A stretch of 64,000 nt of DNA from assembly GCA_964592785.1 (NCBI GenBank), contig CAZQHU010000004.1, forward strand, positions 72 through 64,071, in the 5' to 3' direction. Below, piece by piece: positions 5,214 through 58,559 of this stretch. Below the pieces are notes generated by a model that worked only from the letters and a program-made list of their open reading frames with translations, was not told where the DNA came from and did not search any database. The position numbers and the translations under genes are program-made. The stretch is from an uncultured Gammaproteobacteria bacterium (GTDB lineage: Bacteria > Patescibacteriota > Patescibacteriia > Magasanikbacterales > UBA922). Position 1 is the first letter of the stretch. The number at the start of each line of letters is the position of its first letter.

Positions 5214-6293
5214 ATGAAAAAAGAAATTCTCTTCTCCTACTTCCCCAAAAACACTGTCAAACGCTACCAAGAACTGGTGGCGGTTTTTGATAATCTAGAA
5301 AACGCTTGGAATACAAGTATTGAAGACCTAATTAAAATCGGCTGGGAAGAAAAATTGGCACAAGAATTTACTGACTGGAAAAATAAAATTGACGAAGAAA
5401 AAATTGCCAAAGTCTTGCAACAAGAAAATATACATTGCCTCACCAGAGATGATGAAGCTTATCCAGCCAGTCTAAAAGAACTTTATGATCCACCTTTTTG
5501 TCTTTTTGTCCGAGGTAAACTACCAAAAGATGGATTCAATCTGGCAGTGGTCGGAACGCGAAAATATACTACCTATGGCAAACAAGTGACTGAAGAATTG
5601 GTCACTGAACTTACCCAAAATGGTCTAAATATTATTTCTGGCCTAGCTCTGGGGATTGATGGTATCGCTCACGAAACTTGTTTACAAAATAATGGAAAAA
5701 CTGTTGCTATTCTTGGTACAGGAATAAATAATAACCACATCTACCCAAGTATACACAAAAATCTTGCCAATAGAATTATTGAAAACAATGGCGCGCTTAT
5801 TTCTGAATATCCGCCCGGGGCTCTGCCTTCCAAATTTGGTTTTCCCAAAAGAAATAGAATTATTGCCGGGCTTTCGCTTGGTGTCCTCGTCACCGAGGCA
5901 CCCGAAGACTCTGGGGCGCTCATCACCGCTCAAGTAGCCAATGACCTGGGGCGAGAAGTATTTGCTGTTCCTCATGCCCTTACTTCACCCAATGCCACTG
6001 GCACCAATAACTTAATAAAAAACGGCGCCCACCTGATAAACTCTGCCAAAGATATTTTGGAAATTTTAAATTTACAAGAGATCAAACAATTTATCGGCAA
6101 TCGCCAGATTTTACCCGACTCTCCTACTGAGGCCAAACTTCTGGAACATCTCGGTAAAGAACCTCACCATGTGGATGAAATAATCAAACTTACACAACTT
6201 GACAGCCCTACTGTAAATGCTACACTTACTATGATGGAAATGAAGGGAAAGGTGAGAAATCTTGGAGGAATGATGTATATTCTTGGTAAGTGA
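5214..6293 (+). CDS. dprA: DNA processing protein DprA/Smf
   Basis: Rossmann-like DprA core (VVGTRKYTTYG...GLALGIDGIAH...GSLITA-like) and a C-terminal winged-helix region. Confidence 0.85.
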   Translation: MKKEILFSYFPKNTVKRYQELVAVFDNLENAWNTSIEDLIKIGWEEKLAQEFTDWKNKIDEEKIAKVLQQENIHCLTRDDEAYPASLKELYDPPFCLFVRGKLPKDGFNLAVVGTRKYTTYGKQVTEELVTELTQNGLNIISGLALGIDGIAHETCLQNNGKTVAILGTGINNNHIYPSIHKNLANRIIENNGALISEYPPGALPSKFGFPKRNRIIAGLSLGVLVTEAPEDSGALITAQVANDLGREVFAVPHALTSPNATGTNNLIKNGAHLINSAKDILEILNLQEIKQFIGNRQILPDSPTEAKLLEHLGKEPHHVDEIIKLTQLDSPTVNATLTMMEMKGKVRNLGGMMYILGK

Positions 6294-6713
6294 GTAAGTT
6301 TGTAAGTGTATAAGTTTATAAGTATGTCATTAGTAAAAAACTGGACTGATCTCAATGCCTGGAAAAAAGCTCATCAACTAGTAATTGAAATTTATAAAAT
6401 AACAAAAACTTACCCTAAAGATGAACTTTATGCTTTAATTTCACAAATTCGACGTGCCTCTGTATCTGTAGCGGCCAACATAACAGAAGGTTTTCATCGA
6501 GAAACTAAAAAAGATAGATTACATTTTTATACAATGGCTTCAACTTCATTAGAAGAAGTAAAATATCATATAATTCTATCAAAAGACTTAGAATATATAG
6601 ATGTAAACAAAGCAAGAGAAATTTATTCTTTAGCAAATGAAGTTGGTAGACTACTCAGACGTTGGATGCAAACCCAAAAATAACTTACTCACTTACAAAC
6701 TTACATACTTAAT
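6286..6713. mobile_element. Cassette bounded by inverted GTAAGT/ACTTAC repeat arms and carrying a four-helix-bundle gene
   Basis: Left arm TAAGTGAGTAAGTTTGTAAGTGTATAAGTTTATAAGT (6286-6323). Right arm CTTACTCACTTACAAACTTACATACTTAAT (6684-6713). The arms share the 15-mer GTAAGTTTGTAAGTG in inverted orientation. Confidence 0.4.
6306..6683 (+). CDS. Four-helix-bundle protein (23S rRNA intervening-sequence protein / Avd-like family)
   Basis: ELYALISQIRRASVSVAANITEGF motif typical of TIGR02436/PF05635. The ATG at 6324 is more likely the start than the GTG at 6306. Confidence 0.75.
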   Translation: MYKFISMSLVKNWTDLNAWKKAHQLVIEIYKITKTYPKDELYALISQIRRASVSVAANITEGFHRETKKDRLHFYTMASTSLEEVKYHIILSKDLEYIDVNKAREIYSLANEVGRLLRRWMQTQK

Positions 6714-6724
6714 AACTATACCCT

Positions 6725-7424: not shown

Positions 7425-8810
7425 GTGGCTCAGTTTATGACACATGCACAAGCCCAAAAATTCATCCTTTCCTGGACCAAACTAGGAAGAAAAGAATACC
7501 TAAAAGACCCCAAAAAATGCGGTGTTTATCTTCAGCGTCTGCAATATTTTCTTGATTTAATTGGCAATCCGGAAAAACAAATCCCTCATTATATCCATGT
7601 CACTGGCACCAGTGGCAAAGGTTCAGTGTGTTTGATGCTAGATTCAATCTTACGTGCGGACAAACGAAAAGTAGGAACCATGACTTCTCCAGAAATTGGA
7701 CCCACTCAAACTCGTTGGCAAATAAACGGCCAAAAAATGACTGATAAAGAACTAGCAGAGATTATTACTAAATTAAAACCAAAGCTGGATCTATATTTAA
7801 AAACTTCACCCTACGATCCTATCTCACATTTTGAACTCATGACTGCCATCGGACTTTATTGGTTCGCGCAAAAAAAAGTAAAGTGGTGTATTTTGGAAGT
7901 AGGACTCGGTGGACGGTATGACTCAACTAATATAATTCCCCATAAAGATATTGCTGTCATTACTAATATCGGACTGGATCATACGGAAATACTAGGAAAA
8001 ACCAAAGCCAAGATTGCTTATGAAAAAGCAGGAATTATTAAGCCGGGATGTAAAGTATTCACCAATGAACAAAATAAAAAACTATTAAAAATATTTGAAA
8101 AAGAAATTACAAAAAACAAAACAAATACTAAACAAATACTCAAATTATCATGCCAAAAAAACTTACAAACTTACAAACTTACAAACTTACAAACTATTTT
8201 TAAATATCAAAACCATACTTACAATTTAAATACACTTGGGGAACATCAAGTTGGCAATGCTATTCTCGCAATTGAAATAACTAAATCACTCAAAATCCCC
8301 TACTCAACTATTAAACGTGGTTTAGAAAAAGTAAAACTACCACTGCGCATGGAGATAATTTCCAAAAATCCGCTGATAATTCTTGATGGCGCCCATAATC
8401 CTGATAAAATGAAAACGACAGTAGAAACAGTGCGTAAGTTAATAAGTATGCAAGTGAGTAAGTATAAAGAAAAATCACACTTACACACCTATACACTTAT
8501 ACACTTACTCACTGGATTTTCTGCTGACAAAGACCTAAAAACAATGTGTCAACAACTAAAAACCCTAAACCCAAAAACAATCGCCATCACCAAATTCACC
8601 TCCCCTTTCAAAAAATCTGCCAAACCAAAAGATATTGAAAAATTGGCTAAAAAATATTTCAAAAATACCAAAATCAAAATTTTTAGCAACCCTCAAACCG
8701 CTTATACCACTACAAAAAATAAACTCAAAAAAAATGATCTATTATTGGTCACTGGTTCACTATATTTGAGTGGTGAAATTCGCGCTAAATTGACAAAAGC
8801 AAAAAAATGA
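7425..8810 (+). CDS. folC: Folylpolyglutamate synthase / dihydrofolate synthase (Mur-ligase family), with two in-frame repeat insertions
   Basis: Motifs HVTGTSGKGS, EVGLGGRYDSTN, ITNIGLDHTEILG and DGAHNP. Start is GTG 7425 or ATG 7437. Confidence 0.75.
   Translation: MAQFMTHAQAQKFILSWTKLGRKEYLKDPKKCGVYLQRLQYFLDLIGNPEKQIPHYIHVTGTSGKGSVCLMLDSILRADKRKVGTMTSPEIGPTQTRWQINGQKMTDKELAEIITKLKPKLDLYLKTSPYDPISHFELMTAIGLYWFAQKKVKWCILEVGLGGRYDSTNIIPHKDIAVITNIGLDHTEILGKTKAKIAYEKAGIIKPGCKVFTNEQNKKLLKIFEKEITKNKTNTKQILKLSCQKNLQTYKLTNLQTIFKYQNHTYNLNTLGEHQVGNAILAIEITKSLKIPYSTIKRGLEKVKLPLRMEIISKNPLIILDGAHNPDKMKTTVETVRKLISMQVSKYKEKSHLHTYTLIHLLTGFSADKDLKTMCQQLKTLNPKTIAITKFTSPFKKSAKPKDIEKLAKKYFKNTKIKIFSNPQTAYTTTKNKLKKNDLLLVTGSLYLSGEIRAKLTKAKK
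8161..8194 (+). repeat. Tandem octamer (ACTTACAA)x4, in-frame within folC
   Basis: Direct reading. It encodes LQTYKLTNLQT. Confidence 0.7.
8430..8514. repeat. Palindromic GTAAGT-type element inserted in-frame in folC
   Basis: Left arm GTGCGTAAGTTAATAAGTATGCAAGTGAGTAAGTATAAAG. Right arm CACTTACACACCTATACACTTATACACTTACTCAC, which is the inverted complement of GTGAGTAAGT(G/A)TATAAG. Confidence 0.5.
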
Positions 8811-11128
8811 AGTACACTCATTTCTATATGAGTAAAACTCTGGTAATTGTAGAATCTCCTACTAAAGCCAAAACTATAAGTAAATTCCTTGGTAAAGACT
8901 ACGCTGTAGAGTCTTCTTTTGGTCATGTTCGCGATCTACCCAAGAGCAAAATGGGCATAGATATAGAAGGTGGTACTTTCTTGCCCCAATATATTGTTTC
9001 CAAAGAAAAACAAAAGCAAGTAGCAACACTAAAAAAAGCTGCCAATAAAAAAGAAATCATCTTCGCTACTGACGAGGACCGCGAAGGTGAGGCTATTTCT
9101 TGGCATTTGGCAAACCTGCTAGATGTTGACCCCAAAAAAGCCAAACGTATAGTCTTTCACGAAATCACCAAAAGTGCTATTGAAGAAGCGTTGTCTAACC
9201 CTCGCTCAATTGATTTAAAATTGGTTGATGCCCAACAAGCCCGCCGTATCTTGGATAGATTGGTTGGCTATGAACTTTCTCCATTACTTTGGAAAAAAGT
9301 CGCTCGCGGACTTTCAGCCGGACGGGTGCAGTCTGTAGCTGTCAGATTGATTGTGGAAAGGGAAAGGGAAAGAATCGCTTTCAATTCAGAAGAATATTGG
9401 AGTCTCGAAGGAATATTTAACAAACAAAATAATCCACAAAATTTCAAAGCCCAACTACAGGCCATTAACGATAAAAAACTTGATAAACTGGATTTAAAAG
9501 ACAAAGAACAGGTTGAAGAAATTTTAAAAAATTTAGAAAAAGCTGAATACCAAATTAGCGATCTCAAGAAGTCAGAGACCAGACGTACTCCCCCACCACC
9601 CTTTACCACTTCTACTCTACAACAAAATGCTAGTAATCGTTTCGGATTTTCTGCCAAACAAACAATGGTTTTGGCACAACAACTTTATGAAGGTGTGGAA
9701 CTTGGTAGTGAAGGTTCCATCGGTCTAATTACCTACATGCGTACTGATTCAGTAAATCTGTCTGCCAAATTTCTTTCCGAAGCCAAAGAATTGATTAACA
9801 AAGAATTTGGTTCAAAATATAATCTAGAAAAACCTCGCTATTACGCCAACAAATCCAAAGGCGCTCAAGAAGCCCATGAAGCTATTCGTCCAGCCGATGT
9901 CTTTCGCACTCCAGAATCAGTAAAAGATTACTTATCACCTCAACAATACAAGCTCTATTCTCTGATTTGGAACCGAGCTGTTGCCACTCAAATGGCCGAA
10001 GCCAGATTAAATAAAACCACAATTGATATTCAAAATTCTTTAAACTCCGAACTCCGAACTCCGAACAATCTCTACACTTTCCGTGCCAATGGCCAAACTA
10101 TGATTTTTGATGGTTGGCTCAAGCTTTTCCCCGGCATGCTCAGTGAAGAAATACTGCCAGAATTAAAAATAAATGATAAATTGGAATGCCAAGAACTAAA
10201 ACCAGAACAACATTTTACCGAACCGCCAGCTCGTTATTCTGATGCTACTTTGGTCAAATCTTTGGAAGAATATGGCATCGGCCGTCCTTCCACCTATGCT
10301 CCGACTATCGCTACTATTGAAGATCGTGGCTACGTAGAACGGGATGAAAACAAAAAATTATTCCCCAAAAAAATCGCTTTTATTGTCAATGATTTATTAG
10401 TGGAACACTTCCCGCAAATTGTTGATTATAAATTCACAGCCCAAATGGAAGAAAATCTTGATGATATTGCCGAAGGCAAAAAAGATTGGCAACCAATCAT
10501 TGCCACTTTTTACTCACCTTTCCATGAATTAATTGAACAAAAAACTACTGCCATATCCAAGTCTGAAACTACTGGTCAACGCGAGCTGGGGCTTGACCCC
10601 AAAACCGGCAAAAAGGTTTCAGTAAGAATTGGACGTTATGGGGCTTTCGCCCAATTAGGCGACAAAGACGATGAAGAAAAACCTAAATTTGCCAAACTTA
10701 AAAAAGGCCAAAATCTGGACACCGTTACACTGGAAGAAATTCTACCACTTTTTGAATTGCCAAAAATCTTGGGAAAAAATGAAAATGGCGAAGAAGTCAC
10801 TGTTGCTATTGGCCGTTTTGGACCCTATGTAAAAATTGGGACTAACAATTTTTCTATCAAAGGCCATGATCCATATGCTATTACTCTAACTGAAGTACTG
10901 GAAATTACCAAAGAACAAGCAGAAAAAAAAGCCAGCGCTGAAATAAAAACTTTTCCTGATTCAGAGATTAAAATTTTAAATGGCAAATACGGACCTTATA
11001 TCACTGACGGAAAAAAGAATGCCAAAATTCCTACTGATAAGGAGCCGGCGGAACTAACTCTATCTGAATGTGAAGAACTAATAAAAAACGCTCCGATGAG
11101 AAAAAAAAGGTTTTACAAGAAAAAATAA
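8807..11128 (+). CDS. topA: DNA topoisomerase I
   Basis: TOPRIM (LVIVESPTKAKTI), the active-site YMRTDS region, and C-terminal Zn-ribbon-like repeats. Confidence 0.9.
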   Translation: MKYTHFYMSKTLVIVESPTKAKTISKFLGKDYAVESSFGHVRDLPKSKMGIDIEGGTFLPQYIVSKEKQKQVATLKKAANKKEIIFATDEDREGEAISWHLANLLDVDPKKAKRIVFHEITKSAIEEALSNPRSIDLKLVDAQQARRILDRLVGYELSPLLWKKVARGLSAGRVQSVAVRLIVERERERIAFNSEEYWSLEGIFNKQNNPQNFKAQLQAINDKKLDKLDLKDKEQVEEILKNLEKAEYQISDLKKSETRRTPPPPFTTSTLQQNASNRFGFSAKQTMVLAQQLYEGVELGSEGSIGLITYMRTDSVNLSAKFLSEAKELINKEFGSKYNLEKPRYYANKSKGAQEAHEAIRPADVFRTPESVKDYLSPQQYKLYSLIWNRAVATQMAEARLNKTTIDIQNSLNSELRTPNNLYTFRANGQTMIFDGWLKLFPGMLSEEILPELKINDKLECQELKPEQHFTEPPARYSDATLVKSLEEYGIGRPSTYAPTIATIEDRGYVERDENKKLFPKKIAFIVNDLLVEHFPQIVDYKFTAQMEENLDDIAEGKKDWQPIIATFYSPFHELIEQKTTAISKSETTGQRELGLDPKTGKKVSVRIGRYGAFAQLGDKDDEEKPKFAKLKKGQNLDTVTLEEILPLFELPKILGKNENGEEVTVAIGRFGPYVKIGTNNFSIKGHDPYAITLTEVLEITKEQAEKKASAEIKTFPDSEIKILNGKYGPYITDGKKNAKIPTDKEPAELTLSECEELIKNAPMRKKRFYKKK

Positions 11129-35564: not shown

Positions 35565-36290
35565 TTATTTTTCTTTTCTAATTTCTTTTTTCTTTTCACC
35601 TTCTTTATTTTCTTCAAGATTTTCAGCAAATTTGTCCTTGCGTCCAAAAACTTTGCCATGACAAATCCAAACTTTAATGCCGATCTTGCCATAAATAGTA
35701 TGGGCTTCGCTAAAGGCATAATCCACATCACTACGCAAAGTAATCAATGGCACTGTGCCAGTAGCCAACTTTTCACGGCGAGCAATCTCTACTCCATTTA
35801 GACGACCAGACATCATTACTTTCACTCCTTGAGCGCCAGCTTTCATTACTCTCTCCATAGTCTGTTTCATCACTCGGCGAAAAGGAATACGACGTTCAAT
35901 GTCACCAGCCATGGTATCGGCCACTACTTGAGCAGATAAAGCTGGAGAATGAACTTCTTTTATATTCAATTTTACTCTCAACGACATTTGTAAAAATTTC
36001 TTTTCAATTTCTTTTTTTAAATCTTCCAAACCCTTACCACCACGACCGATCACAAAACCCGGCTTAGCGGCAAAAATATTAACCACCATTTCTTTAGGGC
36101 TGCGCTCAATACTTATTGAATCAATATGAGCTTCTTTCAATTTCTTTGTCAAAAAATCACGAATCTTGTTTTCTTGTTCAGCAAACTTAGCATAGTTATT
36201 TTTGGAAAACCAGCGTGAATCCCAAGTATAAATTACTTGTAAACGGTGAGCTTTTGGATGGACTTTATGACCCATATTAACAATTTTCAA
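35565..36290 (-). CDS. rpsC: 30S ribosomal protein S3
   Basis: KH domain and S3 C-terminal domain. Confidence 0.9.
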   Translation of the reverse strand: MKIVNMGHKVHPKAHRLQVIYTWDSRWFSKNNYAKFAEQENKIRDFLTKKLKEAHIDSISIERSPKEMVVNIFAAKPGFVIGRGGKGLEDLKKEIEKKFLQMSLRVKLNIKEVHSPALSAQVVADTMAGDIERRIPFRRVMKQTMERVMKAGAQGVKVMMSGRLNGVEIARREKLATGTVPLITLRSDVDYAFSEAHTIYGKIGIKVWICHGKVFGRKDKFAENLEENKEGEKKKEIRKEK

Positions 36291-36301
36291 TTTTCAAAAA
36301 T

Positions 36302-36748
36302 TTAATCTTTTAACTTTTCTTCCTTTTTTGAAGTTTTTACTTCTTTTTTAACTTCTTTTTTAACTTCTTTAATTTTTTTATCTTCAGAATTTTTAGATTT
36401 TTTTTCTTGAGCTTCACCTTCCAAAACCAAAGTGATGTGTGAAGTGCGCTTACGAATCGGAGTGGCACGACCCATGGCTTTGGGCATCCAACGATAAAGA
36501 ATCGGACCGCCATCTACCATGATTGATTTGATTCGCAAAGTTCCTTTGTCAATTTTAAAATCATTGATAGCATTGGCAATGGCTGACTGTAATAATTTCA
36601 ATACTGGACGTTTAGCTTCTTTATTCAAAGTCTGTAAGCGCATCAAAGCTTGATCCACTTTCAAACCACGAATAAAATCAGCTACCAATCTCACTTTTCT
36701 CGGAGCCATGCGCAAATGTCTCAATTTTGCTGTTGCTTGTGTTTTCAT
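36302..36748 (-). CDS. rplV: 50S ribosomal protein L22 with a Lys-rich C-terminal tail
   Basis: L22 core followed by a KEVKKEVK repeat tail. Confidence 0.9.
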   Translation of the reverse strand: MKTQATAKLRHLRMAPRKVRLVADFIRGLKVDQALMRLQTLNKEAKRPVLKLLQSAIANAINDFKIDKGTLRIKSIMVDGGPILYRWMPKAMGRATPIRKRTSHITLVLEGEAQEKKSKNSEDKKIKEVKKEVKKEVKTSKKEEKLKD

Positions 36749-43808: not shown

Positions 43809-45341
43809 AAAGGAGGTGATCCATCCCCAGCTTCCGCTAGGGATGCCTTGTTACGACTTCACCCTGATCACTGACCCTGCCTTAGTCCCCATAAGGAGCC
43901 TTTGGGCGTTGCCAGCTTTCGTGGTGTGACGGGCGGTGAGTACAAGACCCGAGAACGTATTCACCGCGCCGTATCTGATGCGCGGTTACTAGCGAATCCA
44001 ACTTCATGAGGACGAATTTCAGCCCTCAATCCGAACTGAGGCTAGCTTTTTGGGATTAGCTCCATCTCGCGATTTAGCAACCCTTTGTACTAGCCATTGT
44101 ATCATGCGTGTAGCCCTGGACGTAAGAGCCATGCTGATTTGACGTCGTCCCCGCCTTCCTCCCGTTTAAACGGGCAGTCTCGTGTGTACATTTAACACAC
44201 AATAGGGGTTGCGCTCGTTACCAGACTTAACTGTACACCTCACGGCACGAGCTGACGGCAACCATGCAGCACCTATCTAACACCTTCGAAAGCGGGCAAT
44301 GTTTCCATCGCCTTGCAGTTAGTAGTTGAGCCCAGGTAAGGTTCGCCGCGTACCGTCGAATTAAACCGCATGATCCTCCGCTTGTGCGGGTCCCCGTCTA
44401 TTCCTTTGAGTTTTAACCTTGCGGCCGTACTCCCCAGGCGGTGTACTTAACGCGTTTGCTTTTTAAAACGGCACTGAGAGGGTCGATACTCCCAATACCT
44501 AGTACACATCGTTTAGGGCGTGGACTACTAGGGTATCTAATCCTATTCGCTACCCACGCTTTGGTCCATGAGTGTCAGGCATGTTATAGCAAGCTGCCTT
44601 CGCCTTTGGTGTTCCTATCGATATCAGCGCTTATTACGACTACACCGATAGTTCCGCTTGCCTCTCCCAGCCTCCAGTCTGATAGTATCAACAGCAGTCC
44701 CGGAGTTAAGCCCCGGGATTTAACCATTGACTTTTCAGACAACCTGCGGACGCTTTACGCCCAATGAATCCGGATAACGTTTGAGGTCTCTGTATTACCG
44801 CTGCTGCTGGCACAGAGTTAGCAACCTCTTATTCCTAGGGTACCGTCACAAATTCGTCCCCTATAAAAGCAGTTTACACCCCGAAGGGCTTCATCCTGCA
44901 CGCGGCGTCGCTCCATCAGACTTTCGTCCATTGTGGAATATTCTTGACTGCAGCCTCCCGTAGGAGTCTGGGCAGTATCTCAGTCCCAGTGAGGCAGGTC
45001 ACGCTCTCACGCCTGCTACCCGTCATAGCCTTGGTGGTCTATTACACCGCCAACTAGCTGATAGGACATAGGCCTTTCTCCAAGTGATAAATCTTTAAAT
45101 GCGAATGACTTTTGTCCCCGCATTGCCATCGGGTATTAATCCACCTTTCGGTGGGCTATCCCCGTCTTGGAGGTAAGTTACCAATGTGTTACTCACCCGT
45201 TTGCCGCTCGTAACCCGTCCAACACTCTACCAACATTTATAAAAAATATTTTTAGAGTGTTGGTCGGGCACGTCGCTCGACTTGCATGCCTTAAACACGC
45301 CGCCAACGTTCATCCTGAGCCAGGATCAAACTCTCAGTAAA
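43809..45341 (-). rRNA. rrs: 16S ribosomal RNA, about 1.53 kb, not linked to a 23S
   Basis: 5' end GAGTTTGATCCTGGCTCAG (rc at 45315-45334). 3' end GGATCACCTCCTTT (rc at 43809-43822). Internal universal segments such as GTGCCAGCAGCCGCGGTAATAC (rc at about 44790) are present. Confidence 0.9.
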
Positions 45342-46561: not shown

Positions 46562-47308
46562 CTAGTCATTCTTTCTTTCACGCCATCTTTTAATTTTCGC
46601 ATGATCTCCACTTAATAAGACCGGAGGCACTTTCCACCCACGAAAATCTGCTGGTTTTGTGTACTGCGAATATTCAATTTCAATTTCATTTGATTTTTTG
46701 TTTTCTTGATTTTTTGTTTTCTTGTTAAACGTTTCTTCACTCAAACTCTCTTCATTCCCCAAAACTCCGGGGATCAAACGTGACACAGCTTCAATAATAA
46801 TCAAAGCCCCCAACTCACCCCCAGCCAAAACATAAGGCCCAATCGAAATCTCTTCATCTACCATATAGTCTGTCACTCGCTGATCAACACCTTCATAACG
46901 CCCACAAACAAAAGTTATTTCATCCAACTTGGAAAATTGTTCTGCCATTCGCTGATCAAACTGTTTACCACGAGGACTTAATAAAACTGTCTTTTTGGAC
47001 TTCGGACTACGGACTACAGACTTAAAAATTGCTTTTAATCGTCCCAAACCATTAGTCTGTCGTCTGTAGTCTGTGGTCAAAGCATCGAGCGAAGCGAGCG
47101 CTTTAAATATGGGCTCTGGTTTCATGACCATCCCCGCTCCCCCGCCATACGGTGTATCATCTACAGTTTTGTGATTATCAGTTGTAAAATCACGCAAATT
47201 GACTGGATTAATTTTGATTAAATTATTTTTCTGCGCACGATGAATAATTGTTTCGTCACAGTAGTCGGAAATTATTTTGGGGAAAATGGTGATGACATTA
47301 AATTTCAT
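46562..47308 (-). CDS. trmD: tRNA (guanine37-N1)-methyltransferase TrmD carrying an in-frame palindromic insertion
   Basis: MKFNVITIFP...DDTPYGGGAGMVMKPEP signature. An extra ~25-30 aa lie between PEPIFKALASL and VLLSPRGK. Confidence 0.85.
   Translation of the reverse strand: MKFNVITIFPKIISDYCDETIIHRAQKNNLIKINPVNLRDFTTDNHKTVDDTPYGGGAGMVMKPEPIFKALASLDALTTDYRRQTNGLGRLKAIFKSVVRSPKSKKTVLLSPRGKQFDQRMAEQFSKLDEITFVCGRYEGVDQRVTDYMVDEEISIGPYVLAGGELGALIIIEAVSRLIPGVLGNEESLSEETFNKKTKNQENKKSNEIEIEYSQYTKPADFRGWKVPPVLLSGDHAKIKRWRERKND
46996..47101. mobile_element. Palindromic element inserted in-frame in trmD
   Basis: Inverted repeats GGACTACGGACTACAGAC / GTCTGTAGTCTGTGGTC. CATCGAGCGAAGCGAGCGC resembles the CGAGCGTAGCGAGG core of the GTCATTCC family. 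Confidence 0.5.
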
Positions 47309-47340: not shown

Positions 47341-47437
47341 AATCAACCCGCCTCATCGGCGGGTTTTGAATTTCTCAATTTCTTAGTTTCTTTTAAAACC
47401 ACGGGATCCTTCGTTTCACTCAGGATGACGCTACGCG
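47341..47437. repeat. Family-B composite element directly after the fusA stop codon
   Basis: CCCGCCTCATCGGCGGG terminator hairpin, AATTTCTCAATTTCTTAG, GGGATCCTTCGTTTCACTCAGGATGACGCTACGCGTC. Confidence 0.5.
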
Positions 47438-49513
47438 TCACTTCTTCCCTTCAGCAATCTGTGCCTCAATATTTTTTGGCACATCTGCATAATGATCAAA
47501 TTCCATAGCATAAGTAGCCCGGCCCTGTGACATGGAGCGTAAATCTGTAGCATAACCAAACATTTCTGAAAGAGGAACCATGGCGCGCACCACTTTGGCA
47601 GTACCACGCTGAGTCATCTCCAAAATCTGTCCGCGTTTGGAATTAAGATTGCCGATCACATCACCCATGTATTCTTCTGGAGTGGTCACTTCTACTTTCA
47701 TTACTGGTTCCAAAACTACAGGACTAGCTTTTTTGGCAGCCTCTTGAAAGGCCATAATACCAGCCATTTTGAAAGCGATTTCTGAAGAGTCAACTTCATG
47801 GTAAGAACCATCAAAAACAGTCACTTGCAAATCCACCACTGGGAAACCAGCTACCACACCTTTATCAATTGCTTCTTTCACGCCTTTTTGAATGGCTGGA
47901 ATATATTCGCGAGGAATAACACCACCTTTGACTTCATCAATAAATTCAAATCCTTGTCCACGTTCACGAGGTTCAAGTTTGAGATAGCAATGACCATATT
48001 GACCGCGTCCACCAGACTGTTTGATGTATTTACCTTCAGCTTCGGCACTCTGGCGAATAGTCTCTTTATAAGCTACTTGTGGCTTACCAACTTTGGCCTC
48101 CACTTTAAATTCACGCTTCATGCGATCCACAATGATTTCCAAATGCAATTCACCCATACCAGAAATAATAGTCTGTAATGTTTCTTGATCAGTATGAACT
48201 CGAAAAGTCGGATCTTCTTCAGCCAACTTTTGTAAAGCCAAGCTCATCTTCTCAGCATCAGCTTTGGTGTTTGGTTCAATGGCAATATCAATCACTGGTT
48301 CAGGGAAAACAATTTTTTCCAAAAGTACCGGACGATTTTCTGCGCAAAGAGTATCTCCAGTAGTGGTAGATTTAAGTCCTACTGCCGCAGCAATCTCTCC
48401 AGCATAAACTTCATTTACATCTTCTCGATGATTGGCATGAAGTCTAACAATACGACTAATACGTTCTTTTTCTCCATTGGAAGTATTGATTACATAGCTA
48501 CCAGCAGTCAAAACACCGGAATAAACTCGAAAAAAAGCCAACTTTCCCACAAAAGGATCAGTGGCTATTTTGAAAGCCAAAGCAGTAAAAGGAGCACTGT
48601 CATCAGCTTTAACAATTATTTCTTTGGTTTCATCATTAGGATCATGAGCTTTGATATCTGGCACATCCAGAGGTGAAGGTAAGAAGTAAGTGACAGCATC
48701 CAACACCAACTGCACCCCCATATTTTGCAAAGCTGAACCACACATTACAGGGTACATCTCATCTTGCAAAACCAAAGCGCGAATGCCAGACTTTATTTCA
48801 ACTTCAGTAAATTCTCCACCATTTAAATATTTATTCATGAGTTCATCATTAGCTTCAGCCACTTTTTCCAACAATTGAGCCCGATAAGTTTGAGCTCTTT
48901 CCAATTCTTCAGCTGGAATTTCCATTTCCACGATATTTTCACCGCTCTTACCTTCAAATTTATAAGCTTTCATTTTGATAAGATCAATGATCCCGGAAAA
49001 AGAAGATTCAGCCCCGATTGATAATTGAATAGCAAAAGCTTTGGGGGATAATCTTTCTTTAATGGAATTTAAACTCATATAAAAATCCGCACCCATCTTG
49101 TCCATTTTATTGACAAAACAAATTCTTGGCACGCGATATTTATCAGCTTGACGCCAAACTGTTTCAGATTGTGGCTCCACACCTTGGGAACCATCAAAAA
49201 CAGCTACTGCGCCATCGAGTACGCGCAAAGATCTTTCTACTTCCACAGTAAAGTCCACGTGGCCGGGAGTGTCAATAAGATTGATACGATGATCTTTCCA
49301 AAAACAAGTGGTGGCAGCTGAAGTAATAGTGATACCACGTTCTTTTTCTTGTTCCATCCAATCCATTTCAGCGGCTCCTTCATGTACTTCACCAATCTTA
49401 TGTTTCTTACCAGTATAAAAAAGAATACGTTCTGAAACAGTAGTCTTACCGGCATCAATATGAGCGGCAATACCAATGTTCCTGGTTTTGTCTAATGAAT
49501 ATTCACGAGGCAT
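47438..49513 (-). CDS. fusA: Elongation factor G
   Basis: [17 protein letters not shown]. Start at [15 protein letters not shown] (49513) matches orthologues. The upstream ATG at 49525 lies inside the repeat terminus. Confidence 0.9.
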
Positions 49514-49520
49514 AAGTTTA

Positions 49521-49646
49521 TTCATTCCGAGCGTAGCGAGGAATCTTTCTCACCTCGTACATATCGGAGTGTTTAGTTATTGATTTAAAAAAGTTTGTAA
49601 TAGGAAAGATTCCTCACCCTCGCTTGAACTCGGGTTCGGAATGAAC
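49521..49646. repeat. GTCATTCC-family MITE/REP-like element filling the rpsG-fusA spacer
   Basis: TIRs TTCATTCCGAGCGTAGCGAGGAATCTTTC and GAAAGATTCCTCACCCTCGC...CGGAATGAAC, with a central GATTTAAAAAAGTTT. Its terminus CGGAATGAATAAACTT lies immediately 5' of the fusA ATG. Confidence 0.6.
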
Positions 49647-50120: not shown

Positions 50121-50128
50121 ATAGTTCG

Positions 50129-50262
50129 TTCATTCCGAGCGTAGCGAGGAATCCTTCTTGCCTCGAACGTAGTCGGAATGTTTATTTTATGATTTAAAAA
50201 AGTTTTAATTTAAGAAAGATTCCTCGTTTAGTCCGTGCGAACGGACTCACTCGGAATGAACC
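50129..50262. repeat. GTCATTCC-family MITE/REP-like element filling the rpsL-rpsG spacer
   Basis: Near-identical to 49521-49646: TTCATTCCGAGCGTAGCGAGGAATCC...GAAAGATTCCTCG...CTCGGAATGAAC. Its terminus lies 9 nt upstream of the rpsG ATG. Confidence 0.6.
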
Positions 50263-50693: not shown

Positions 50694-50699
50694 AAGATT

Positions 50700-50817
50700 T
50701 ATTCATTCCGAACGAAGTGAGGAATCTTTTCCAACACGTACGTTCTTAAATAAAATTAAATAAAATAAAATTATTTTTTCTTAATAAAGATCTCTCACCC
50801 TTTGGGCTCGAGATGAA
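50700..50817. repeat. Degenerate third copy of the GTCATTCC-family element upstream of rpsL
   Basis: TTCATTCCGAACGAAGTGAGGAATC...GATCTCTCACCC...CTCGAGATGAAC. Confidence 0.45.
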
Positions 50818-52450: not shown

Positions 52451-52529
52451 AATTAGATTAAAATTGAAAAATTAATAAACTAAAAAATTTTAATTTCTTA
52501 ATTTTCCAATTTCCGAATTTCTCTGTATA

Positions 52530-58257: not shown

Positions 58258-58325
58258 ATGCCCAGTTTTATTACAGTCTCCAACCATTTGGAAAAGTTTT
58301 AAAATTTAAAATTAAAAATTTAAAA

Positions 58326-58559
58326 TTGACTAATATGGGTCTCCCATCCAAACAAAGAACCAGTCGTTCCAAACGCGAAAGAGCTTCACATTTTGCTCTC
58401 AAAACCAAAACCAGTGGTAAATGTGAAAAATGCGGTTCAACCACCACCCCACATCGTGCTTGCGCCAGCTGTGGTCACTATCGTGGTCGCCAAGTAATAA
58501 AAGTGGAAAAACGCGCCGCTCGCGCCACTCGTCGAAAAAAATTGATTGGCAAAAAATAA
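58326..58559 (+). CDS. rpmF: 50S ribosomal protein L32
   Basis: [14 protein letters not shown]... plus a CxxC...CxxC zinc ribbon. Start is at 58326 or 58335. Confidence 0.8.

Follow-up and report, generated by a model that had tools for sequence, protein, structure and literature searches.

The window analysed here is a 64-kb stretch of DNA with a GC content of 38%, and the subject of this report is a hairpin of 7-nt tandem repeats that lies in frame within its trmD gene (Table 1). The product of this gene is a tRNA m1G37 methyltransferase of the SPOUT class: it matches PF01746 (E=2e-55) and solved TrmD structures in the Protein Data Bank (PDB; E down to 1.7e-64), and it has the SPRG, GRYEG and GGE loops of the family, with the knot-loop residues S111 P112 R113 G114, G136 R137 Y138 E139 G140 and G163 G164 E165 invariant. 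Its nearest homologues are the TrmDs of Candidatus Magasanikbacteria, a lineage of the candidate phyla radiation (CPR)/Patescibacteria. The immediate upstream neighbour of trmD is fusA, and a 16S rRNA gene is found at 43809-45341. At the gathering threshold, Rfam detects only the 16S rRNA and tRNAs in the window, with no match in trmD.

Table 1. Positions of the trmD features and of the intervening-sequence-protein gene in the window
Feature	Positions	Strand	Basis
trmD, tRNA (guanine37-N1)-methyltransferase, 248 aa	46562..47308	-	open reading frame (ORF) list, Pfam, PDB matches
GC-rich tail CATCGAGCGAAGCGAGCGC, codons A70-LASLD-A76, conserved helix end	47083..47101	-	consensus, codon variants
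5' arm, coding orientation GACCACA GACTACA GACGACA GACT (GGACTAC-type)	47054..47081	-	inverted repeat, TRF, codon alignment
Hairpin loop, native trmD codons N86-GLGRLKAIF95	47023..47053	-	protein alignment, DNA comparison with L092
3' arm, coding orientation AAGTCT GTAGTCC GTAGTCC GAAGTCC (GTAGTCC-type)	46995..47022	-	inverted repeat, TRF
Second variable TrmD loop (after EETF), 16-nt tandem repeat x2.2	46690..46724	-	TRF, loop-2 census
23S-rRNA intervening-sequence (IVS) protein (IVP) gene	ORF 6306-6683, likely start ATG at 6324		PF05635 (3.5e-37), also bAvd-like

The trmD hairpin and its reading frame

The palindromic repeat that the initial annotation had described in frame in trmD is indeed present, and the frame is open across it. 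The two arms, 28 nt each and 31 nt apart, are 79% complementary, and their best core (47005-47021 / 47062-47078, 17 nt) reaches 88%. Both arms are tandem heptamer arrays: TRF detects, on the plus strand, GGACTAC x3.7 at 46997-47022 and TAGTCTG x3.7 at 47053-47078, with 89% and 84% matches within the arrays. The element therefore has the features of a heptamer-array hairpin, namely a period-7 tandem array in each arm and two complementary arrays of opposite orientation close together. It departs from the published intergenic location of such hairpins, as it lies inside an ORF, at codons 76-105. Codon alignment with the arm-less orthologues L090, L091 and L092 indicates that the 5' arm encodes A76(3rd base)-LTTDYRRQT85, in place of the canonical IPFxKxD. 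The 3' arm encodes K96-SVVRSPKS-K105.

As three heptamer units make 21 nt, arrays of this type can keep the frame. All three frames stay open through a perfect (GGACTAC)n array, which specifies the cyclic peptide GLRTTDY; a perfect (GTAGTCC)n array presents TAG in every frame from three units upward. On the coding strand, the GTAGTCC-type arm of trmD reads AAG TCT GTA GTC CGT AGT CCG AAG TCC. Its third unit is GAAGTCC, not GTAGTCC, and this single T-to-A change abolishes the in-frame TAG.

Several tests bear on whether the repeat could be fortuitous. Allowing up to three mismatches, the core 17-mer occurs four times, always inside the trmD arms, against 0.01 expected. None of 200 codon shuffles reaches the 22 complementary positions of 28 observed, the best scoring 21. 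Taken alone, this ungapped test is weak, and the case for the hairpin rests on heptamer periodicity and recurrence of the unit, not on complementarity alone. The coding-strand RNA has a folding energy of -27.3 kcal/mol (z = -3.34), and 0 of 200 shuffles fold as well; in the trmD mRNA, the hairpin would form an imperfect stem of approximately 25 bp.

The gene was also found in five independent Logan assemblies, with 8 nt differences. An exact look-up of the window TrmD gave no match, and these contigs (L081-L085) were reached through protein P0001, which is near-identical to it. In L081, the one copy printed, the 162-nt loop region is exactly that of the window. The presence of the gene in five assemblies and the identity of the L081 loop region imply that the hairpin is not an assembly artefact. 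No length polymorphism is visible among these assemblies, L081 being the printed copy.

Native sequence between the arms

In the alignment to solved TrmDs, residues 76-99 of the window protein (24 residues) have no counterpart. The AlphaFold model places the extra segment between helix 64-73 and the strand running into the SPRG loop, with a predicted local distance difference test (pLDDT) score below 50 over residues 83-102. In the trefoil knot of TrmD, the SPRG motif is the first loop that binds AdoMet, and the extra segment therefore lies just outside the knot. In this model, the hairpin-bearing segment is predicted to be a poorly ordered surface loop, N-terminal to the beta-strand that precedes SPRG.

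We surveyed this segment, hereafter loop 1, in the 120 closest TrmDs as the stretch between GGGAGM and LLSPRG. A canonical loop of 43 aa (...SLDAIPFxKxDGLxKxKKIFxGxIKKKKRTI) is present in 96-97 of them, 7 others combine it with an unrelated insert of 7-8 aa, and 15-16 have a remodelled loop. In all, approximately 103 have the older loop but no hairpin. Loop 1 of the window TrmD comprises 48 aa versus 43 aa in the canonical form. The closest arm-less orthologues are L090, L091 and L092, with 78-79% protein identity to the window TrmD. A scan of genome contigs yielded nine Magasanikbacteria loci among the matches listed, at no more than 67% identity, and the DNA of closer orthologues was taken from the contigs that encode the orthologue proteins.

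The comparison with these arm-less orthologues reveals what the arms have done to the loop. On the 5' side, LTTDYRRQTN of the window stands against IPFRKDD (+3 aa), and on the 3' side KSVVRSPKSKK stands against SSDIKKKKR (+2 aa), for a net gain of 15 nt, or 5 aa. The peptide between the arms, NGLGRLKAIF, corresponds by homology to DALSKLKKIF / DGVGKVKKIL, the canonical form being DGLSKVKKIF, and 21 of the 30 nt that separate the arms are identical to L092. At the codon level, the differences from L090, L091 and L092 cluster in L71-K105, whose centre is still homologous. As judged from these alignments, the arms have replaced both flanks of an older, Magasanikbacteria-specific loop, and the 30-nt loop of the hairpin is native trmD sequence. 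In a rough neighbour-joining tree built on core columns of TrmDs, remodelled loops are scattered within canonical clades, from which it follows that the hairpin state is derived. When the 54-aa loop peptide was used to search proteins for intermediate forms, no matches were obtained.

These results modify the description first given of this locus. Extra residues do exist, since 24 of them are unmatched in solved TrmDs, but relative to the arm-less orthologues the arms add only three and two residues, far from the 'about 100 bp' and 25-30 residues initially proposed. Insertion in one piece is contradicted by the native inter-arm stretch, and most of the extra residues belong to the lineage-conserved loop. 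As for the possibility that the segment is a conserved, lineage-specific insertion unrelated to repeats at the DNA level, its first half applies to the older loop and its second half fails for the arms, which are related in their DNA to repeats found elsewhere.

The GC-rich tail that follows the palindrome in the initial annotation is found where it was reported, but its proposed kinship with the core of the str-operon repeats does not hold up well. The tail CGAGCGAAGCGAGCG encodes the helix end KALASLDA, for which the consensus in 44 TrmDs is KALKSLDA. The likeness to the str-operon core concerns CTCGCTTCGCTCG, a 13-mer identical at 12 of 13 positions and located on the KALASLDA codons. Beyond this core, the str-operon repeat (TTCATTCCGAGCGTAGCGAGGAATC, with the 5-bp stem ATTCC/GGAAT) and the trmD tail differ in flanks and stems, and the tail is a conserved coding segment. 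Relatives use comparable codons there, such as GCA CTC AAG TCT CTT in L009, and ordinary synonymous variants also occur in L001 and L002. A similar motif, with two mismatches to the trmD 15-mer, arises from the C-terminal codons FAHFAR of rpsG. The resemblance to the str operon is thus probably due to chance, and the tail probably not part of any element. We also considered that the LASL codons, which share 1, 0, 0 and 1 identical nt with L090 and L092, might be a replaced tract; this was rejected, as more distant relatives use similar codons.

As for the str operon itself, the spacers upstream of rpsL, rpsG and fusA (49515-49640, 50123-50262 and 50696-50744) each contain a small hairpin GATTCCTCGCTACGCTCGGAATGAA with the 5-bp stem ATTCC/GGAAT, which finishes a few bases before the start codon. 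Two of the three spacers have a second, inverted copy of GATTCCTCGCTACGCTCGGAATGAA after the stop codon of the upstream gene.

Recurrence of the unit and origin of the arms

Related TrmDs harbour comparable arrays. L086 (P0005), 77% identical to the window TrmD, has the 3' arm in common with the window, this segment being identical at 35 of 36 nt in genes that are 76% identical overall. In L086 the 5' arm is decayed, reading GACTTCA GCTATCG GCAAACA GACTTCG, and the loop still folds (z = -3.5), with GACTTCR units facing GAAGTCC units. L087 (P0045, 68% identical, Magasanikbacteria) has in the same TrmD loop (GGACTAC)x4, a 24-nt A-rich loop and GTAGACC GTAGTCT GTCGACT GTAGTC. This hairpin (-45.1 kcal/mol, z = -6.5) is much cleaner than that of the window and lies in a different register, with the native loop partly missing and the array starting at the conserved D-G-L codons GAC GGA CTA. 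The arm-less canonical orthologues L090 (z = -1.5) and L092 (z = -1.1) have no significant fold. Other units populate loop 1 in further relatives, with (GGCAAAA)x4 in L003 and (KSEIRNP)n in P0102.

Similar behaviour is seen in the other variable loop of TrmD, loop 2. In L087, it contains another heptamer hairpin, GAATGCA/ATTCAGC (z = -4.6). In the window, its tandem repeat is perfect (TTGATTTTTTGTTTTC) and codes for part of NKKTKNQENKKSNEIEIEY, a peptide common to the closest relatives. In our census, the length of loop 2 ranges from 8 to approximately 45 aa, with many hairpin-like peptides and often other hairpins. Short-unit repeats have thus entered TrmD again and again in this clade, at two loops.

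The spacer between fusA and trmD contains a hairpin of its own, GGATCCTTCGTTTCACTCAGGATGA, at 47403-47440. A similar sequence is found in frame as a 7-8-aa insert (GNPSALLRMN / GNPSTSLRVKK) in loop 1 of seven TrmDs (P0002, P0009, P0029, P0033, P0091, P0105 and P0109).

Outside TrmD, the repeat was recovered in metagenome contigs, with no other copy of the GGACTAC array in the 64-kb window. Exact (GGACTAC)3 is present in at least 120 stretches of the metagenome collection, of which 80 loci were listed (L093-L172). The GC content of these 80 loci spans 37-72%, and they therefore come from many lineages. At least 32 loci have a complementary array within 150 nt, in the order (GTAGTCC)n, short non-conserved loop, (GGACTAC)n, with the unit variants GGACCAC, TGACTAC and AGACTAC. 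The opposite order is seen in only two weak cases, versus these 32, among the listed loci, and 17 unpaired arrays lie at contig ends. With (GTAGTCC)n first, every frame runs into TAG stops, from whichever side the hairpin is entered. The genes around the hairpins are ordinary (pth, rpsF-rpsR, sugar kinase, glycosyltransferase). The idea that pairs of intergenic hairpins border special gene cassettes was rejected, as the enclosed genes are housekeeping genes. In contig L121 (44% GC), (GGACTAC)x4 is in frame in a family-2 glycosyltransferase gene, with no obvious length gain; this contig could not be assigned to the genome of L087/L088 (GC 0.44 versus 0.51). No match to (GGACTAC)3 was found in 2.9 million viral contigs.

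Taking these observations together, we consider that the trmD feature is probably an in-frame, partly decayed member of a widespread class of heptamer-array hairpins. It would have been written or converted onto both sides of a disordered loop that was already present and that accommodates it, with the T-to-A change keeping the frame open. The process that generates GGACTAC-type hairpins elsewhere would have laid the arrays onto the loop flanks, for instance by ectopic conversion from other arrays, or by slippage together with intrastrand template switching from arm to arm, and the loop would tolerate them. The hairpin is most likely a passenger without a role in TrmD catalysis.

Several points weigh against this explanation. 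The 64 kb available contain no second GGACTAC array, and multi-copy status in the genome is thus only putative. Arms placed around native sequence are not what any known insertion mechanism would predict. In the trmD hairpins of the window and of L087, the arms come in the reverse of the order usual between genes, and given the ratio of 32 to 2 these hairpins may have a different origin. Finally, the persistence of the hairpin across 24% nucleotide divergence and the compensatory-looking units of L086 (GACTTCR/GAAGTCC) could reflect selection for structure instead of passenger status.

A purely local origin would dispense with any dispersed family: a heptamer seed would have been expanded by replication slippage and copied by intrastrand template switching, as in quasi-palindrome correction, the shared unit being a matter of convergence. 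Such a scenario accounts well for arms that substitute for native sequence instead of being added to it, for the L087 array that begins exactly at the D-G-L codons GAC GGA CTA, which contain GGACTA, for the quite different units of L003 and P0102, and for the matched changes in the L086 arms. We nevertheless regard it as unlikely, since GGACTAC and its variants form hairpins in dozens of unrelated contigs of very different GC content, and a GGACTAC array is present in another gene, that of the low-GC contig L121. Convergence on GGACTAC in two TrmD lineages is also improbable unless some factor imposes the unit.

Even less probable, in our opinion, is a functional hairpin, either an mRNA structure controlling trmD translation or decay, such as an RNase III site, or a selected surface peptide. 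The structure is kept in the window and L086 despite their divergence (z ~-3.4 in both), with a nearly identical 3' arm, and it is strong in L087, as one might expect of a selected element. However, it is missing from approximately 103 of the 120 closest TrmDs, the arms are not positioned alike in the window and L087, and the encoded segment is predicted at very low confidence. Moreover, in quasi-palindrome mutagenesis, arm-to-arm templated correction can maintain a palindrome without selection.

The proposal of a discrete palindromic mobile element of ~100 bp, inserted in one piece, adding 25-30 residues and sharing a core with the str repeats, now has little left to recommend it, and the orthologue alignment largely refutes it. 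It would resemble Rickettsia palindromic elements (RPE), which were reportedly described by Ogata and colleagues in 2000, or MITEs (miniature inverted-repeat transposable elements). RPE have a family consensus and a length of 100-150 bp, and they enter a gene as complete elements that contribute 30-50 aa. In its favour, an essential gene does contain palindromic DNA in frame, 24 residues lack a counterpart in solved TrmDs, whole hairpins in loop 2 of related TrmDs have the appearance of net insertions (20-28 aa), and CTCGCTTCGCTCG does match the str core at 12 of 13 positions. On the other hand, the inter-arm sequence is native (G-L-x-K/R-L/V-K-x-I-F), the gain over close orthologues is only 15 nt, the window has no further copy, and the tail is a conserved helix in ordinary codons. 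No direct repeat is common to the flanks AAAACTGTCTTT and GCATCGAGCGAA, and a target-site duplication is absent. The locus consequently shows neither a whole RPE-like element of ~100-150 bp adding 30-50 aa nor the MITE combination of terminal inverted repeats and target-site duplication. Finally, chance complementarity and periodicity in a lysine- and serine-rich coding loop could invoke the single point separating the inverted-repeat score from the best shuffle. The fact that the unit comes back in L087, L086 and metagenome hairpins already refutes this reading, which has next to no probability in view of the heptamer periodicity of both arms, the 17-mer count and the fold.

In-frame tolerance of the trmD hairpin finds its closest functional analogy in RPE, likewise palindromic repeat DNA in frame in coding genes, located in surface-exposed segments and not destroying function. 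The trmD hairpin differs by its simple heptamer-array arms, its native centre, its gain of 5 aa and the absence of a consensus element. RPE are also mentioned in PMC1779305. The repetitive extragenic palindromic (REP) sequences, bacterial interspersed mosaic elements (BIME) and bacterial MITEs (reviewed in PMC10969869) are short, hairpin-forming dispersed repeats as well, albeit mostly between genes. Unlike them, the trmD hairpin has tandem-unit arms, without the combination of terminal inverted repeat and target-site duplication and without family-specific unique sequence, and no link to a REP-associated tyrosine transposase (RAYT) or other transposase was seen.

Heptanucleotide repeats have been known since the 1990s as over-represented in bacteria, their origin and function being unexplained. 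The closest published counterpart of the trmD hairpin is the set of convergent (GGGAATC)n pairs of Xanthomonas, in which 70-75 pairs of heptameric simple sequence repeats were found among ~185 arrays (Rehm et al. 2015, PMC4692102). Other over-represented heptanucleotide repeats include the cyanobacterial STRR and the TAACTGA repeats of Beggiatoaceae (PMC4679880). Like the trmD arms, they are few-unit 7-nt tandem arrays with variable positions, often two opposed arrays close together that can form a stem-loop. They are described as intergenic, with function and origin unexplained. In contrast, the trmD hairpin is in frame in an essential gene of a CPR bacterium, its unit is GGACTAC, and its arms flank native coding sequence. 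Tandem repeats of Borg elements, which create disordered protein regions (PMC9879509), are similarly fast-evolving nucleotide repeats in ORFs that yield low-complexity, probably disordered peptides. However, the intragenic Borg units are direct and multiples of 3, whereas the trmD arrays are inverted, with a unit of 7 nt (21-nt / 7-aa periodicity). We found no description of the GGACTAC unit, of IVP genes with heptamer arms or of in-frame palindromic elements in CPR bacteria in the literature searched for them.

The significance of the trmD hairpin lies first in its location, since it indicates that the gene of an essential knotted enzyme in a streamlined CPR genome can harbour heptamer-array hairpins in frame, and that such hairpins remodel a TrmD surface loop repeatedly in related lineages. 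Second, genomes that differ widely share one hairpin-forming unit, GGACTAC, and the polarity of its arms is strict. A practical consequence concerns annotation: odd 7-aa-periodic peptides such as GLRTTDY and VVRSP in CPR proteins derive from repeat DNA, not from functional motifs.

Inverted arrays around IVS-protein genes and elsewhere in the window

Arms of the trmD kind also bracket genes of the IVS-protein family. The IVP gene of the window is bracketed exactly by inverted octamer arrays, the whole cassette spanning 6283-6720. The first array, (GTAAGTNN)n at 6283-6327, contains the stop codon of dprA in its first unit and adjoins the ATG of the IVP gene; the second, (NNACTTAC)n at 6677-6720, begins at the IVP stop codon and finishes 5 nt before the next gene. 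In the metagenome contig L147, GGACTAC / GTAGTCC-type arrays bracket an IVP gene, in an order that is also opposite to the common (GTAGTCC)n-first arrangement. At L127, a unique 22-nt inverted repeat stands in place of arrays.

We further examined a sample of 14 plasmid IVP genes from cyanobacteria and one Azospirillum. About 12 of them have inverted purine-rich heptamer arrays at the start codon and their complements at the stop; of the remaining genes, one has direct arrays and one has none. Their inverted-repeat scores range from 9.5 to 27.5. The median for 70 control ORFs of the window is 8, with a maximum of 14 besides the IVP gene itself. On some cyanobacterial plasmids, genes of this four-helix-bundle family with heptamer-array flanks are found inside CRISPR-Cas operons, between cas genes (L216 and L221, cas6-cas4; L217, cas10-cmr3).

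By analogy of architecture, the arm type of trmD is that of the IVP cassettes. The 23S rRNA intervening sequences and IVP cassettes (PF05635, four-helix-bundle, bAvd-like) resemble the trmD hairpin in that terminal inverted repeats form a stem. They differ in that inverted arms surround a PF05635 ORF, whereas no IVP ORF lies between the trmD arms, which enclose only 30 nt of trmD sequence, the single IVP gene of the window being that of the cassette described above. In addition, RNA-level excision by RNase III, as in rRNA intervening sequences, would destroy an mRNA.

It is tempting to speculate that the trmD hairpin is the footprint of an undescribed repeat-writing or mobile system that lays arms around existing sequence, including loops of essential genes. 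ORF-less heptamer hairpins would be its non-autonomous forms and IVP cassettes between inverted 7-8-nt arrays its autonomous forms, spread over CPR, cyanobacteria, Alphaproteobacteria and soil bacteria. We hold this idea as tentative and somewhat doubtful. If the arm link were causal, it would provide a common and testable explanation for the IVS-protein family and for heptamer repeats.

The window holds other in-frame arrays of short units, in folC and topA, in line with the initial annotation, which counted trmD as a second case. In the folC-like gene (7425-8810), the ACTTAC octamer of the IVP cassette recurs in frame 1.5-1.8 kb beyond the cassette. One folC array (8159-8195) is perfect (x4.6) and lies in a gap-free alignment to T. 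maritima FPGS; a folC hairpin at 8435-8515 (z = -4.5) adds approximately 14 aa. A perfect heptamer array, (AACTCCG)x3.4 at 10043-10066, is in frame in the topoisomerase I-like ORF 8807-11128 (topA), where it encodes LNSELRTPNN.

AT-rich inverted arrays of short units are also found between genes, at 52460-52522 as well as at 58291-58341 and 36269-36319. In these intergenic arrays, (AAAATTAA)n directly adjoins (TTAATTTC)n. One AT-rich inverted pair, 51 nt long and 73% complementary, has its members 22 kb apart.

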